A DNA stretch of 59,426 bases from Spizellomyces punctatus DAOM BR117 (GCA_000182565.2 KQ257462.1), one strand, 5' to 3'. Shown: positions 997 through 16,830, counted from the stretch's first letter. Made by a program: numbers and translations. The notes: generated from the letters alone by a model not told the origin.

Positions 997-1695
997 TTAA
1001 ATGGGTTTAATCTTAAAGTGTAGCGAGATCAGTGAGAAGACCAAGCATTTTAGATCCTGGATTAGGTAGTAGAACACCCGTAGTCCTTCGGGGTCCTTGC
1101 TCTCTTGGACATCTACGAGGGAGCCGATCTTTGCCGTCTGATCAAAGGTTACAGATGAGCATATTATAAGATGACTTGTCATCCGAGCAATCGCAGCGTT
1201 AAATACTCACGGTGAATGATATGTGTTCTTTGCCCATCACGATCTCAAGCTCCTGTCGTCCAACCCGGTCTGGAACAGGCCACAGTTTGTCGTCCTCCCT
1301 AAATCGCAACAGTACACCCGAATGTCAACAACTTGTTCTACCACGACGCACCCAGCGACAAACGCTATTTCCAAGATCTCTGCAATACGCACTTTAGGAT
1401 CTCACTGTCGGTGACTATTCTCTTCAACTCCTGAATCAGCGATGGGCTAACGTACACCTCCTTTCGGATTAAAGTGTCGTTTTTGTAGTTCGAGGAGTTG
1501 GCATATCGTAGTTTGCCGTCCGGCCTAAACTCGAACTCGAGGAACTCATGTCCAAACTTGCCAATGTGGCCGACGCTGATGCGAGAATGGATTCGCGATG
1601 TCAGCAACAGATCTATGTTATGGCTGTAATGACATACGCAGGAGACGGAAAGCTTACTAATATCGAACATAAAGCTCTTCTTCTCCAGTGGCCAT
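997..1695 (-). CDS. MAGO: Mago nashi, exon junction complex core (4 exons)
   Basis: Spliced [39 protein letters not shown]...[19 protein letters not shown]...[15 protein letters not shown]. Confidence 0.97.
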
Positions 1696-1871
1696 TTCGT
1701 CAATCCAGGGGTGAATATCTGCTGGAGCGATGCTTTGGCAGGCGTTAATTGCCAACAACTAAGCAGTCCTTGTTGCCATAGAAATAGCAACGCGGAGTCT
1801 CACCAGATGCAAGTTGACTTCGCGCTCACCGTCCCAAGTCTGAGGTCCTTCTTTGGGAATCGACGCTAACC

Positions 1872-6824: not shown

Positions 6825-9347
6825 ATGGGGTCTCGAACGACCACGCTTATGGTGGTCGTCGTTGGCTTTTTTATGCTGTATCTGTACTTTCAATACGCTG
6901 CAGAAGCTCAGTTTCGATTGTAAGGGCATCCCCGAATCCTTTTGCCACCAGTGCGCACTCACTCACATTTCTCACATGAACAGTTCTATAGGGATAAAAC
7001 AAAAGGAACATTTTGAGCATCCTACTGACCCAGGTATCTCTGCAAAGAAGCAAGATTTCAAGTCTCCAGAGAAAGGGGAGCAGGCAGAAAGCAAACGGCT
7101 GCCGACGCCCCCGGGCACCTCATGTCCACCGTGCCCTAAGGTTCCTCAGGTTTCAAATTACAAAAGCCAATTTGCCGTACAGAATACGCTTACAGCCCGT
7201 TTCAACGAACTTACCATTGCGAAGCATCCTACCTATGGAACCTGTCTTCTAACAAACTCATCATCCACGCCTGTGACTTGCTCATCGGATGAGCATATTC
7301 ATTATGAAGCTTTGGTGCATCCCGCGCTAGTTCTTCACCCGTTTCCGCGGCGGGTTCTAGTAGTAGGAGGCCTTGTAGAGGCGCCAATTCGAGAGGTGCT
7401 GAAACACTTCTTGGTTCGCGAAATAACCTGGGTAGATCAGAAGGACCTGATAGAAGGACCCAAAAGATTTCTCCCCTCGGAATACGCGTATGAGGACCCT
7501 CTGAATCGTGTAGAGGTTGAGAATATGGCTGGCGCAGGATATATGCGATATGTGGATAACGCCAACCGCCATTATGATGTGATTATCATCGCCGATGATG
7601 CCCGGCATGTCCAGCGGGAGAACCATTGGAAAGGAGCAGCTTCAATGGAGAAGCGAGCAGAGGTCATTGAAGCCGCGCAGGCAGCCCTAAAAGCAGGAGG
7701 TGTATTGGCCGTCTTCAGTGGAGAAATTGAGGGACCCGCCTGGGAAGATCGGAGACTCCTTCGTCGATACTTTCCTCGAGTATTCCTCGGAACTCGTTAT
7801 GTCCCCTCTGTGGGTGCCCCGGTGGCATATTCTTACGCAACTAGATCAGAGGCGCCTCCCGACCCAAGAATGCTGGCACCCGAATATATCGACGCCCGGC
7901 TGCGGCGCACGACCATTGGAGGTACTAGAAGCTACGATGGACTGACGCATTTGCATATGTTTGCATTGACGAAGGATATGCGTGATGAGATTGACAAGGA
8001 AGATCTGAAGGCTAGGGAAAAATCTGCTGCAACAATTGTTGTTGGAGCAACGCCATCGGAGCTGCTGCATGCACCTTACAAGGAGGAGCCATTCTTGGAT
8101 CCTGTAACTCAAGGCGACACCATAACACGGGAATTTTATGGTTGTGCTAATGAAGCCTTCAATATGACGAATCTGAAGACTATCGTAGAAGGCGCCGTAG
8201 AAAAGATGAATGGACGTCTTGTGTTTCTGAACGCAACCGAGGTGAAGGAATTCAAGAACAACACAGGTGCAACCAAACCGATTCCAATGCTCTCCGTGGT
8301 AGCAATGACGGAGGGAGGGAGCATCACTCTGCATGCGTGGCCAAGTTACCAGTACGCTGCGGCGGATGTGACCAACTTCAACAACTGGGCAGTAGGAGAG
8401 GAGGCTATGAATCACATTTTTAATGAACTTGGTGCGTTCCCAGAATGAATTCGCGCGTTGGTCATTCACACTCTGATTTTGAATGGATCGCCAGATGCCA
8501 CAAAAAGCATCGGCTCAACTTCTCTACGAGGAAGTCTCACACGCTTTGCGTCTGCACCTATTCTTGACCATGTCAAATATCCCACTCCATATAAACAAAA
8601 CCCGAAAGTAGAGTTTCGAATCTCACCCACAGCGGGATCCGGAAATTTTGCCAGGGAACCCATCATGAAGGGAGAGATAATTTTCGAAGGTCCTATTGAA
8701 ACTTATTTACTGACTAAGGAAGAGATACGAGCGAAACCCGAATGGTTGGAGGAGTTCATGATGCATTATGGAGAGCAGGTTCGTCCAGACTAAAAGTACG
8801 CGAAAATGATTCTCCCCACTTATCTTCATGTATCCCGCAGGCTGAGGATGGGATCTTTGTGGGGCCACCCTACGCGGATCTCGATGCGTCGTACTTTACA
8901 AATCATCATTGCGATGCTAATCTTTGGTAAGGGTCAGGTTTTGCGAATTGCGTCTCAAGCTGACAGAACTAAAAATGTGAGACTAAAATTCTGTTGTTCT
9001 TAGGTACGAAGATTACGATATCATGGTGGCAAGACGAGATATTGCCATTGGCGAGGAGCTTAACTTTGATTGTGAGTGCCCATTATGTATTATCTACCTT
9101 TGTTGATGATAGTTTGTTGAGTATCCTTTCGGTTACAGATGGAACGATATATAGTGATCCTGAGATTTTGGACATCAATCCTTGCCAATGTGGGGCACCG
9201 AACTGTCGTAAACACATCACCGGTAACGACTGGAAGAAAGCAGACGTGCAGAAAATGCATGGCCTGGAGCATTTCTGGCCGCATATACAAAAGAAAATCA
9301 TCAAGACTTCGAAATTGCGGAAACGTGAAACACTTGCGGAACTGTAG
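6825..9347 (+). CDS. Signal-anchored fusion: aminopropyltransferase-like + AdoMet decarboxylase-like + SET/post-SET (~729 aa, 6 exons)
   Basis: Exons 6825-6919, 6984-8431, 8495-8778, 8841-8926, 9004-9071, 9139-9347 join in frame (2190 nt). Motifs: TM MVVVVGFFMLYLYF; DEHIHYEALVHPALVLHPFPRRVLVVGG; GDTITREFYGC...SITLHAWPSYQYAAADV; NHHCDAN, GEELNFDY, CQCGAPNC. Confidence 0.85.
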
Positions 9348-13437: not shown

Positions 13438-15505
13438 ATGGTCGCCAGCGCCCTTTTCATTTTGGACCTCAAGGGCAAGGTGACAACGCCATCTTGACCA
13501 CCGTTAACATGAAAATGAGTGCAAGCTCCTGACCTTCGCATGTCCACCTTAAGGTCCTTATTTCTCGAAACTATCGCGGAGATATTCCCATGTCTGCTGT
13601 AGAGAAGTTTATGCCTCTCATATTGGAGGCGGAGGAAGAGGAGCAGACTCCGACACCGATAATGTCGACCGAAGATGGCATTCACTTTCTCTATGTGAAG
13701 CATAACAACCTTTATTGTATCCTTTGAAAGCGATGGATGGTTTCTTGCACGAGGGAGCATGTAGCCTCTACTATCTTGTGTCATTTGTTGTTGTGGATAT
13801 CTTTTTGTGTCCTTAACTCTGACTACTGACAGTATTGGCAATGACCAGGAAGAATTCAAATGCAGCGACAATATTATTGTTCCTTCATAAGCTGATAGAG
13901 GTAGCGTTGGACTACTGGGAAGGGGCGCCAGAATGATGGACTGGATCGGAAACTTCAATGACACATTCCGTATCTGCGTCAGGTCTTTACAGAATATTTC
14001 AAGGAGCTGGAGGAAGAATCTATCCGGGATAATTTTGTGATTATTTACGAGTTACTTGATGAAATGATGGATTTCGGATACCCACAAACCACAGAACCCA
14101 AGATTCTACAAGAGTACGTAAAGTGAAACGGGAAATCGATCGCCGCATTCCAGCATTGACACATTTTCTACTTAGATACATCACACAAGAATCCTATAAA
14201 CTTGAAAGCCAACCCCGTCCTCCCATGGCTGTCACCAATGCGGTGTCATGGCGTCCCGAAGGAATAAAGTACAGAAAGAACGAGGTGTTCCTGGATGTGG
14301 TCGAATCGGTAAATTTGCTGGTAAACGCAAATGGAAATGTATTGCGGAGTGAGATTTTGGGAGCGATCAAAATGAAATGTTATCTGAGTGGGATGCCTGA
14401 TGTACGTTTGGGACTAAATGATAAGGTACTCTTCGAGAGTACTGGGAGAAGTAAGTAGACTTTTAAAGGGAGTTGACTGGTCGGCCTTGTGCTGACTTTT
14501 GGCTGCTCCTTCATATACAGCCCCGGGAAAGGGAAAGGCGGTCGAAATGGAGGATGTGAAGTTCCACCAATGCGTTCGGTTGGCGCGGTTCGAGAGTGAC
14601 CGGACGATTTCCTTCATTCCACCAGACGGCGAGTTTGAGCTGATGTCATACCGCCTGAATACCCAGGTTAGCGGCTAGCGGCTAACCGCAGGGCGGTGAT
14701 TATCTGCCTGCTCCCACAGCATGCACTGAAATTCTGCTCCTTTGTTTCATGGTCACAGGTGAAACCACTTATTTGGTGCGAAGCAGTTATAGAATCTCAC
14801 AGTGGGTCTAGGGTTGAGTACATGATAAAGGTGGGTTTGGTCTTTGTTTCTGGAAGGACTCGCTGCGGTCTAATAATTTTCCTTCCCACGAGTAGGCCAA
14901 AGCTCAATTCAAGCGAAGATCATCAGCAAACAACGTTGAAATCATTGTTCCCGTGCCCGAGGATGCTGACACTCCAAAGTTTAAGGTGCAGACGTCAGCA
15001 GAAAGCCACCTAGTTTGTTCTCTATACTGACTGTGGCGCGGCTGTAGAGCACCGTCGGATCGGTGTCTTACGCACCTGAGAAGAATGCAGCTGTATGGAA
15101 GATCAAACAGTTCCCTGGTGGCAAAGAGTTCATGATGCGGGCACACTTTGGCCTACCCAGTGTTAAAAGCGGTATGTTGTCGGGAGTTGATTAGATAAAT
15201 TTAAATATTGCCTGCTGATTGCACTTTAGAGGACCCCGATAAGCGACCGCCGATTTCTGTCAAGTTTGAGATTCCGTATTTCACTGTCTCTGGTATTCAA
15301 GTGCGGTATCTCAAGGTTGTGGATAAGAGTGGCTACCAAGCGTTCCCTTGGGTACGATATATTACGCAGAATGGAGGTATGGAATCAAAACTGGCGAATA
15401 TGGTATAATGTCTGTACAGCATGGAGATGTGACGCAATTCGTCTTCCAGATTATTTCATGCGACTCCCAGAACCCGTCAAGACATCAAAGCTCGGTGCAA
15501 TCTAG
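13438..15505 (+). CDS. APM1: AP-1 complex subunit mu (multi-exon)
   Basis: MVASALFILDLKGKVLISRNYRGD, EESIRDNFVIIYELLDEMMDFGYPQ, AVSWRPEGIKYRKNEVFLDVVE, FEIPYFTVSGIQVRYLKV. Confidence 0.96.
13717..13832 (+). other. U12-type (minor spliceosome) GT-AG intron in APM1
   Basis: Donor GTATCCTTTG; branch site TCCTTAAC at 13810-13817, 15 nt before the intron end. Removal restores HNNLY-L-LAMTRKNSNA. Confidence 0.85.
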
Positions 15506-15639: not shown

Positions 15640-16830
15640 CTAGTTTGCTTTTTTGAGGCGTTTGCCTTCATTTACGGCTTTAGCATCAGCGCCCATTCTC
15701 CATATGGGCATGGCGATCCAAGCGATACAAGAGTATAGTCCGTCCATGAACGCGTTATTTGCTGGTGGTGCACCTAGTCCAATGGAAAAAATCTTTAGGG
15801 ATGAATTTGCGGCAGTAAAACGAACGTCCATTTTAACCGACCCTTTGTCATAGTCCTGATTAAATCGCCCGTAAAATCAGAGCTAATGCTGTAATGCTCC
15901 TTCTCTACCCCTCGCACCAAAATTGCAGCAGCCTTTGCGGGAGTCACACCTTCATCTGCCCCTTCTATATCTTTTGTAAGCTGCGGCTTCGTCTTATTTT
16001 CCTCTTCCAATCCCGGGGAGTAAATGGTTCCAGGGAAGTAGATATGAACCTTGATGCCATACATTAATAGCTCCATTCTGAGAGCTTCAGCTAATCCCCT
16101 GACAGCAAACTTGGCACCGCAATATGCTGCGTAACCTGGTAGACCCATCAATCCACACACGGAAGACACGAACACAAGCCGGCAGGATGCAGGGGATGAG
16201 TGGGTGAGAAACGACTGTACGGCGGCATGAGCAGTGTACGCGGCTGTAAAGTAGTCTGTTTGCATTTCCTTTTCGAGATCAGCGGGTGAGGCTGATGCGA
16301 AGAAACCAGGACGTGCCGAGCCTTGTGGGTTCAAGTCAGGGTGAGCAGGGTCTACAAGCGCTGTGATGAAATATTGCACATACCAGCACACATGAAAACA
16401 TAATCCACCTTCTTCTTCATTTCCTGTTCAGCTCTTTTCATTGCGTCAGCCGCTAGGTCCGGCACACATAAATCGGCACTTTCGTAGCGAATTATCTGCT
16501 CCTCATTCGACTTGCACGCGGAGATCTCCAGTTGTGCTGCTTTCAGCTTATCCACAGATCGAGCTACTATCGTGACGTGCGCCCCTCGTTCGGCAAGTAG
16601 CTTTGCGAGGGCAAGCCCTGTGCCTTGTGAACCGCCTGTAATGTAGACATGCTGGGTGTTTGTAGTCAGTGGTGTGCAGAAGGTAGCAAGAACGCAGGAG
16701 GTAATACCTTGTCTTTCGGTTCGAATGAGTTCTTATCCTTCTTCCGAAAGACCATGGTTGCAAAGGCCAAGAGGAAAACTATGCTACTTGCAACGACAAT
16801 GGAGTGAAGACCTCCAATCATTACCGACAT
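15640..16830 (-). CDS. TSC10: 3-ketodihydrosphingosine reductase (SDR)
   Basis: N-terminal TM; HVYITGGSQGTGLALAK; YAAYCGAKFAVRGLAEALRMEL; IYFPGTIYSPGLEEENKTKP; C-terminal hydrophobic tail. Confidence 0.9.

Follow-up and report, generated by a model that had tools for sequence, protein, structure and literature searches.

What does a fungal protein do that joins, in one chain, relatives of the two enzymes of polyamine synthesis and a methyltransferase module? The question is raised by a gene of the zoosporic fungus Spizellomyces punctatus DAOM BR117, located on the plus strand at positions 6825-9347 of a 59,426-nucleotide stretch of its genome (GCA_000182565.2 KQ257462.1; hereafter the window). 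Behind an N-terminal hydrophobic anchor and a stalk, the predicted protein carries an aminopropyltransferase (APT)-like domain, a class-1b S-adenosylmethionine decarboxylase (AdoMetDC)-like domain and a SET/post-SET module, in that order. The initial annotation of the locus proposed that the AdoMetDC part makes decarboxylated S-adenosylmethionine (dcSAM) for the APT part, in a protein handling and methylating polyamines. Our analysis points to another answer: we estimate at roughly 55% the probability that the protein is a lumenal SET methyltransferase with two pseudoenzyme domains, one APT-like and the other AdoMetDC-like. We present below the gene model, the state of each catalytic centre, the probable location of the protein and the family to which it belongs.

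Gene structure and domain architecture

The locus consists of six exons (2190 nt when joined), which encode 729 amino acids and a stop codon with no internal stop, separated by five introns of 62-77 nt that all start with GT and end with AG. Exon 1 (6825-6919) contains the start codon and the hydrophobic segment (residues 8-26, 6846-6902). It is followed by intron 1 (6920-6983, 64 nt) and by exon 2 (6984-8431), whose 482 residues alone pass the Pfam thresholds of two families. Intron 2 (8432-8494, 63 nt) is in frame and includes a TGA at 8446-8448. Exon 3 (8495-8778), intron 3 (8779-8840, 62 nt) and exon 4 (8841-8926) come next, then intron 4 (8927-9003, 77 nt), which splits a Trp codon, exon 5 (9004-9071), and intron 5 (9072-9138, 67 nt), which shifts the frame and splits the Tyr codon of a catalytic motif. 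Exon 6 (9139-9347) ends with the stop codon TAG at 9345-9347.

This model is backed by an orthologue. The best database relative, P0001, is annotated as a 'hypothetical protein' of 728 residues in Spizellomyces sp. 'palustris' and shares 92% identity with the S. punctatus protein after splicing (668 of 728 aligned positions). In tblastn, six family proteins cover 6825-9344 collinearly on the plus strand; residues 1-31 and 33-608 of P0001 flank intron 1, and the 21 codons of intron 2 are exactly what P0001 is without. Removing intron 4 restores the Trp codon of an N-L-W-Y stretch, and removing intron 5 the Tyr codon of the SET motif E-L-x-F-D-Y.

Along the chain, a Lys/Glu/Pro-rich stalk (residues 33-94, 6985-7170) leads to the APT-like domain (residues 95-376, 7171-8016), which we delimited by PF01564, PDB entry 1uir and column tests. 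The AdoMetDC-like domain, delimited by PF02675, hhalign and an alignment to 1tlu, begins in exon 2 (residues 396-514, 8074-8431) and finishes in exon 3 with its last strand and R-G motif (residues 515-527, 8495-8532). The SET, post-SET and C-terminal extension (residues 553-715, 8608-9302) occupy exons 3-6, and a basic C-terminal tail ending in A-E-L completes the protein (9303-9347 with the stop codon). On P0001 the three Pfam families score 52.9 (Spermine_synth), 37.7 (SET) and 29.8 bits (AdoMet_dc). Mean pairwise identity over 11 family rows is 0.50 in SET, 0.32 in the APT-like domain, 0.26 in the AdoMetDC-like domain and 0.13 in the stalk. The initial annotation had read the locus as six GT-AG exons joined into one 729-residue chain of transmembrane anchor, linker, APT fold, class-1 AdoMetDC fold and SET/post-SET: the open joined frame, the orthologue, the Pfam matches and the exon joining bear this out, and its domain coordinates fit ours (7171-8016, 8074-8532 and 8608-9302).

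The locus could instead hold two genes, an APT/AdoMetDC-like protein ending at the TGA at 8448 and a separate downstream SET protein, a reading to which we give very little credence. Intron 2 keeps the reading frame and contains a stop, its unspliced reading forms an open reading frame (ORF) of 569 codons, and prokaryote-style gene calling divided a related Logan contig in the same way (P0002 and P0133, each on a 6421-nt contig, probably the same one). Moreover, no spliced read was found: in four public runs, holding 8-28% of sampled words, all nine contig pieces (9/9) were collinear with genomic DNA and none contained an exon joint. Two of these pieces (8958-9108 and 9084-9319), from runs labelled RNA or 'RNA?', continue unspliced over intron borders at a depth of 2-2.6; they may be DNA carry-over or pre-mRNA, which are not distinguishable here. 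Against two genes stands the AdoMetDC-like fold itself, which is complete only with exon 3: in an alignment with canonical bacterial C-termini, joining exons 2 and 3 adds the last strand and the R-G motif, and the AdoMet_dc match of P0001 (residues 412-522) spans the 514/515 junction. Annotated proteins from four or more other genera continue from the domain into K-S-I-G-S-T..R-G without a stop; exon 3 has no in-frame Met before the SET module, except within the intron-adjacent ORF; and the architecture is kept in two phyla. A transcript across 8431/8495, which the initial annotation implied, was not seen as a joint in the RNA pieces, and the single chain is upheld by the orthologue and the completed fold.

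Three further observations concern transcripts and frames at the locus. The piece at 9084-9319 is a 236-nt contig from a root-metagenome RNA-seq library, identical to the locus and including 55 nt of intron 5, so that S. punctatus or a very close relative was present in that sample. Retention of intron 2, with intron 1 spliced, would yield a 540-residue protein (ATG at 6825 to TGA at 8448) without SET and without the last AdoMetDC-like strand, possibly a regulated isoform. On the minus strand, an open frame of 222 codons (7846-8514) overlaps the sequence that codes for the APT-like and AdoMetDC-like domains. It matches nothing in Pfam, and a shadow ORF is the most likely explanation.

Two polyamine-synthesis-type domains without key catalytic residues

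To compare each domain with its relatives we used near-invariant columns, defined as those with an identity of 90% or more among reference sequences: 198 bacterial APTs, 11 canonical domains of bacterial AdoMetDC-APT fusions, and the 38 nearest SET relatives. The homology of the APT-like domain is clear. Exon 2 alone matches Spermine_synth (PF01564) with 48.5 bits (cut-off 22.9), and the closest PDB entry is Thermus SpeE (1uir, 75.6 bits, E=3e-20), followed by 3anx (75.6), 7xif (73.1), thermospermine synthase 6bq2 (56.7) and human spermidine synthase (38.5 bits), a ranking that agrees with the Thermus SpeE/thermospermine-synthase type first assigned to it. With these Thermus SpeE-type enzymes, including those of Chloroflexota type, the domain shares the best sequence matches and a C-terminal Y-D-G..H..F stretch present in 22/22 family rows; it differs from them in lacking the Tyr, the loop acid and the second Asp of the active site and in having an extra, family-specific Cys. 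Exon 2 gave no Pfam match to the tetramerisation domain PF17284. The domain falls far short of the NCBIfam equivalogs (PRK00811, 77.8 vs a cut-off of 260; TIGR00417, 69.1 vs 249.55), and keeps 28 of 45 near-invariant columns (family, 546/990 cells).

The losses fall on active-site residues. Three Asp and one Tyr are named, with their roles, as the key residues of APTs in the available text of PMC10146546. The catalytic Tyr (human spermidine synthase Tyr79, K. lactis Tyr73), found in 197/198 bacterial APTs, is His138 in S. punctatus (7300-7302) and is absent from all family rows (0/20). The acid that anchors the aminopropyl part of dcSAM in the G-G-G-[D/E]-G loop (K. lactis Asp98) is replaced by Val163, the loop reading G-G-L-V-E (7366-7380); this column is E/D in 194/198 canonical sequences and in 4/20 family rows. 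The D-x-x-D stretch has become A-D-D-A (7591-7602). Here MAFFT places Ala235 at the deprotonating Asp (K. lactis Asp167, human Asp173), a column with Asp in 198/198 canonical and 12/22 family rows, and the substrate-anchoring Asp (K. lactis Asp170, human Asp176) aligns with Ala238 by MAFFT or Arg239 by HMMER; D/E occupies this last column in 193/198 canonical rows and in one of the 22 family rows. Three of the four key residues are lost in both alignments. The replacing residues vary across the genera of the family, so that a new conserved pocket is not evident, and the APT-like domain is probably non-catalytic.

Putrescine N-methyltransferase evolved from spermidine synthase, and a comparable shift could have occurred here: the AdoMetDC-like domain would be dead, and the APT-like Rossmann domain would have an altered transferase activity, for instance with S-adenosylmethionine (SAM) as donor, acting together with SET on a polyamine or a modified lysine. 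We regard this as unlikely, albeit with several points to recommend it. The fold and many structural columns (28/45) are kept, constraint is evident from a mean identity of 0.32, several Spizellomycetales share the replacement motifs G-G-x-V-E-A and I-I-I-A-D-D, and HMMER can align Asp236 with the deprotonating Asp. However, the replacements stay constant neither within the order nor within the family: the copies of Thoreauomyces, Gaertneriomyces and Fimicolochytrium differ at every such site, which argues against a shared APT active site.

The AdoMetDC-like domain is equally recognisable as a fold. Exon 2 alone matches AdoMet_dc (PF02675) with 29.3 bits (cut-off 25), and hhalign aligns 19 family rows with the 11 canonical bacterial domains at 98.5% and E=1.7e-15 over 116 columns, reaching the R-G motif; the proposed prokaryotic class-1 type is thereby supported for the middle domain. 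The equivalog TIGR03330 (SAM_DCase_Bsu) is missed by a wide margin (25.1 vs 75.65). Apart from this full-length profile homology, the domain shares with class-1b enzymes (SpeD/SpeH, 1tlu) the Y-G-C and W-P motifs, the equivalent of His68 and the terminal R-G; it differs in having Gly for Ser63, Phe for Cys83, Ser for the Glu after W-P, and an insertion bearing a glycosylation sequon. Ser63, the precursor of the pyruvoyl group, His68 and Cys83 are the essential residues of the Thermotoga maritima enzyme, according to the available portion of PMC10407285. By HMMER, Ser63 of 1tlu corresponds to Gly477, within a former processing site now reading E-G-G-S (8311-8322); PDB chain 1tmi differs only in an Ala at the Ser63 position. 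The pyruvoyl column is Ser in 11/11 canonical domains and in 0/22 family rows, which have Gly (19), Asp (2) or Ala (1). Cys83 corresponds to Phe497 (8377-8379), in a column with Cys in 9/11 canonical and 0/21 family rows. Only 6 of 14 near-invariant columns are kept in S. punctatus (family, 107/308 cells). Judged by these residues, the AdoMetDC-like domain cannot form the canonical pyruvoyl cofactor.

With Ser63 replaced by Gly, Cys83 by Phe and three of the four APT residues lost, an AdoMetDC that supplies dcSAM to the APT is unlikely here, and the central step of the initial proposal is not supported. A working three-enzyme machine, in which AdoMetDC makes dcSAM, APT extends polyamines and SET N-methylates them, is correspondingly improbable. 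It would account for the presence of all three Pfam families in one chain, and it has a precedent: diatom fusions of AdoMetDC and APT, some with an N-methyltransferase, have been proposed to make and methylate long-chain polyamines (PMC3820600, PMC12029483 and PMC6356823, each in part). The ESM-Atlas cluster nearest to P0001 is indeed a diatom cluster (score 0.95, a feature-based match), whose members carry Spermine_synth (100%), AdoMet_dc (99%) and SET (30%). Against such a machine stand the family-wide absences, with the pyruvoyl Ser missing in 22/22 rows, the catalytic Cys in 21/21 and the APT Tyr in 20/20, the rarity of the dcSAM-anchoring acid and of the second Asp, and scores far under the equivalog cut-offs.

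A conserved SET module

The C-terminal module presents the opposite picture. SET (PF00856) scores 37.7 bits against a cut-off of 22.4, as measured on the 92%-identical orthologue P0001; exon 3 of S. punctatus alone reaches only E=0.1, because the domain is spread over exons 3-6. The S. punctatus protein has the G-x-G motif, N-H-H-C (8901-8912), E-L-N-F-D-Y (9056-9140) and a post-SET C-x-C-x4-C (9183-9206), in keeping with the SET and post-SET initially placed at the C-terminus. Four putative zinc-binding cysteines (Cys633, 676, 678 and 683) are each kept in 15-16 of 17 family rows. The best PDB match is the SET domain of KMT2A (5f5e and others, 35.9 bits). The KMT2/SET1-type motifs G-x-G, N-H-x-C, E-E-L-x-x-D-Y and C-x-C-G-x3-C-R are common to both; the differences are the modest score and the setting, the S. 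punctatus SET lying behind a secretory anchor and not in a chromatin protein.

In the column test, 19 of 22 near-invariant positions are kept in S. punctatus and 313 of 374 cells in the family, over the 17 rows that remained after dropping five without half of the region; most losses fall in two doubtful gene models. SET is also the most conserved part of the protein. It is the only domain that still has its catalytic residues, and we predict it to be a methyltransferase. That all three domains are inert, the protein being purely structural or binding, is a reading suggested by the apparent inactivity of two of them; the retention of SET catalytic and zinc-binding motifs in nearly all members, in what is the most constrained region, makes it highly improbable.

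The closest relatives of this SET are unnamed stand-alone or double SET proteins of 170-260 residues from metagenomes and one amoebozoan transcriptome. The sole named member of this large group of small proteins comes from the amoebozoan transcriptome. Inside the group, the SETs of the fungal family cluster as a single clade (14 rows, SH-aLRT 99). Among the 22 nearest SET relatives with at least 18 residues before SET, two have an N-terminal hydrophobic segment, both of them members of the fungal family; none was seen in the other 20.

A probable secretory location

The hydrophobic segment of the S. punctatus protein has a Kyte-Doolittle 19-residue mean of 1.91 at residue 8 and is predicted to be either a signal anchor or a cleavable signal peptide. 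Such a segment lies within the first 30 residues of 14/22 family members; one more copy has it at residue 203, behind a long predicted extension, and the members without it are N-terminally incomplete models. Two other traits are shared across the family. A short family-specific insertion in the AdoMetDC-like domain, before the former cleavage strand, contains an N-x-[ST] sequon in 15/22 rows (N-N-T at 8257-8265 in S. punctatus). Cys131 (7279-7281) of the APT-like domain is present in 19/19 family rows that cover it and in 0/198 bacterial APTs; its likely disulfide partner, Cys119 (7243-7245), is present in 19/19 family rows and 113/198 bacterial APTs. Together, the anchor, the conserved sequon and the family-specific Cys point to the secretory lumen and suggest an N-glycosylated, disulfide-bearing lumenal or extracellular protein.

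Five of the 22 family rows end in x-x-E-L: L-A-E-L in S. punctatus (9336-9344) and P0001, L-N-E-L in Thoreauomyces, H-H-E-L in Sorochytrium and K-S-E-L in Fimicolochytrium copy b. These endings resemble the classic K/H-D-E-L retrieval signal of the endoplasmic reticulum (ER) without matching it.

A family of zoosporic fungi

An exhaustive HMMER search with P0001 returned 3932 proteins with an E-value of 0.001 or less, 27 of them with 1e-30 or less, and full-length relatives came only from zoosporic fungi or unnamed Logan contigs. The family includes 13 named taxa in Chytridiomycota and Blastocladiomycota: Spizellomyces, Powellomyces, Thoreauomyces, Geranomyces, Gaertneriomyces and Fimicolochytrium (Spizellomycetales), Phlyctochytrium arcticum (Chytridiales), Cladochytrium and a Lobulomycetales metagenome-assembled genome (other Chytridiomycota), and Catenaria, Sorochytrium, Paraphysoderma and Blastocladiella (Blastocladiomycota). 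Lineages were checked for Sorochytrium, Paraphysoderma, Phlyctochytrium and Thoreauomyces; the remaining genera presumably belong where we have placed them. Domain order in Pfam is identical wherever gene models are complete, and the proteins are named 'hypothetical', 'SET domain-containing' or 'SAM-dependent methyltransferase' at the source. The fusion is no one-off assembly: it represents a conserved family of two phyla. As the initial annotation had supposed, a description of it in fungi was not found in the literature searched; neither 'Spizellomyces' nor 'SET domain' occurs in the accessible main text of a 2025 survey of eukaryotic APTs (PMC12803844).

A quick maximum-likelihood tree of 22 rows has two groups, separated with a support of 99. 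The first comprises S. punctatus, most Spizellomycetales and Phlyctochytrium; the second unites Cladochytrium and Lobulomycetales with the Blastocladiomycota, which are monophyletic (99). Fimicolochytrium is represented once in each group, whereas Cladochytrium has two copies, both in the second. By this topology the groups are old paralogue groups in Chytridiomycota. They also differ in the first catalytic Asp of the APT-like domain, which is Ala in 8/10 rows of the S. punctatus group and is kept in 12/12 rows of the other.

After the fungal matches, scores drop from 332 to 110 bits, and the next proteins are bacterial APTs of about 300 residues, several of them named Dehalococcoidia. Thermospermine-synthase-like enzymes of Chloroflexota type have entered many eukaryotes by gene transfer, as reported in the available text of PMC12803844; these transfers and the Thermus SpeE type of the domain make a bacterial origin of the APT-like part plausible. 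Two proteins from metagenome or Logan contigs, P0143 (494 residues) and P0144 (472 residues), have SET fused to an apparently intact APT, one in each order (Spermine_synth 107.9 bits for SET-APT, 140.6 bits for APT-SET). Relatives of P0144 and of P0191 were not found in scans of prokaryote genomes or viral contigs. We considered a common ancestral fusion with P0143 and P0144 and rejected it for the SET part: ordered by path distance from the S. punctatus SET, theirs come 78th and 90th among 103 non-fungal rows, a remoteness from which we infer that the fungal fusion was assembled independently of them.

The locus lies among ordinary eukaryotic genes. Exons of Mago nashi (1365-1799, minus strand, 94.9 bits), an adaptor-complex medium (mu) subunit (14063-14458, plus strand, 90.2 bits) and a short-chain dehydrogenase (15795-16427, minus strand, 62.3 bits) were identified in the window, and G+C content is unremarkable. 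Polyamine genes were not seen near the locus in Pfam matches of neighbouring exons.

Discussion

The reading that we favour, a lumenal SET methyltransferase with two pseudoenzyme domains, would operate as follows. The protein would be a single membrane-anchored or secreted N-glycoprotein of the secretory pathway, whose sole working catalytic centre would be the C-terminal SET/post-SET, transferring a methyl group from SAM to an amine. The acceptors would most likely be lysine side chains of secretory or cell-wall proteins, or possibly polyamine-type amines. The APT-like and AdoMetDC-like domains would descend from a bacterial-type polyamine-synthesis pair that no longer has the residues needed to form dcSAM and to transfer aminopropyl groups, and may have been retained for their fold, as a scaffold on which the protein oligomerises or substrates dock. 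Human spermine synthase offers the analogy: its N-terminal AdoMetDC-like domain is inactive yet needed for dimer formation (PMC12803844, in part). Both proteins derive from a bacterial AdoMetDC/APT pair in which AdoMetDC-like catalysis was lost and the domain retained structurally, in the human case by the account of the same source and in the fungal one by our proposal. The human enzyme differs in its reverse domain order, in its active APT, where that of S. punctatus is degenerate, and in having neither SET nor secretory anchor.

Several observations weigh against this reading, beginning with the unspliced RNA pieces described above. In the AdoMetDC-like domain, E-G-G-S of S. punctatus holds a Ser one residue past the canonical position, and the His68 equivalent is kept as His482, as it is in 6/22 family rows. 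In the APT-like domain, the Glu of G-G-L-V-E lies one position past the canonical acid, and HMMER, against Thermus SpeE, aligns the deprotonating Asp with Asp236 by way of a one-residue insertion before A-D-D-A; residual or altered APT chemistry may on these grounds persist in Spizellomyces. In P0126, another member of the family, three of the four APT key residues are still present. The orientation of the anchor is judged from hydropathy and indirect clues only, and the reading would require a zinc-cysteine post-SET cluster and a supply of SAM in an oxidising lumen. Finally, the three reference sets behind the near-invariant columns are unequal in depth and divergence (198, 11 and 38 sequences), and near-duplicates and truncated gene models are present among the 22 family rows.

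Comparison with diatoms is natural, the nearest ESM-Atlas cluster being theirs and sharing the same three Pfam families, as the initial annotation had anticipated. We compared the fungal protein with the diatom fusions by descriptions and Pfam features; a word-based search with the SET region returned four fungal proteins only, a family-profile search returned fungal members and bacterial APTs only, and neither reached diatom sequences. Common to both are the three domain families in one secretory-type chain and the bacterial type of the polyamine domains. There are also differences: key residues are missing from both polyamine domains of S. punctatus, the protein occurs in a fungus that does not silicify, and the order is APT-like, AdoMetDC-like, SET, as opposed to AdoMetDC, APT and, in some, methyltransferase in diatoms, according to partial texts of PMC3820600, PMC12029483, PMC6356823 and PMC12803844. 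The biochemistry of the diatom polyamine/SET fusions is itself listed as needing study (PMC12803844, in part). We also looked for a silicon-handling link in chytrids and set it aside: Spizellomyces is not mentioned in the searched literature on Lsi2 and silicon transport. A second diatom class, with rearranged domains and a catalytically dead AdoMetDC, was reportedly described by Michael in 2011 (FEBS Lett 585:2627); such proteins would be the closest match to the fungal family.

A more speculative proposal, in our view doubtful, is that zoosporic fungi have a lumenal lysine- or polyamine-modifying system resembling what has been suggested for the silaffins of diatoms, and that in this system the anchored protein would methylate lysines of secreted or cell-wall proteins in the ER or Golgi. 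Just as tentatively, aminopropyl-type groups might be recognised or transferred in such a system, with the relic module serving as a reader or docking site for polyamine-like side chains.

Until now, only diatoms have featured in discussions of fusions between polyamine-synthesis domains and SET, which are regarded there as candidate enzymes for producing the methylated long-chain polyamines involved in shaping silica. What is new here is that zoosporic fungi of two phyla, which do not silicify, have a conserved and unnamed family built from these three components. On the favoured reading, this family shows clearly how two enzymes can become pseudoenzyme modules within another, and it carries a warning for annotation: matches to Spermine_synth and AdoMet_dc in these proteins should not be taken as a sign of polyamine biosynthetic capacity. 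If the silaffin-like proposal were true, the 'silica-specific' machinery of diatoms would be one branch of an older eukaryotic pathway of secretory protein modification. For asking what such fusions do, the family also provides a simpler setting, in a chytrid lineage amenable to genetics.

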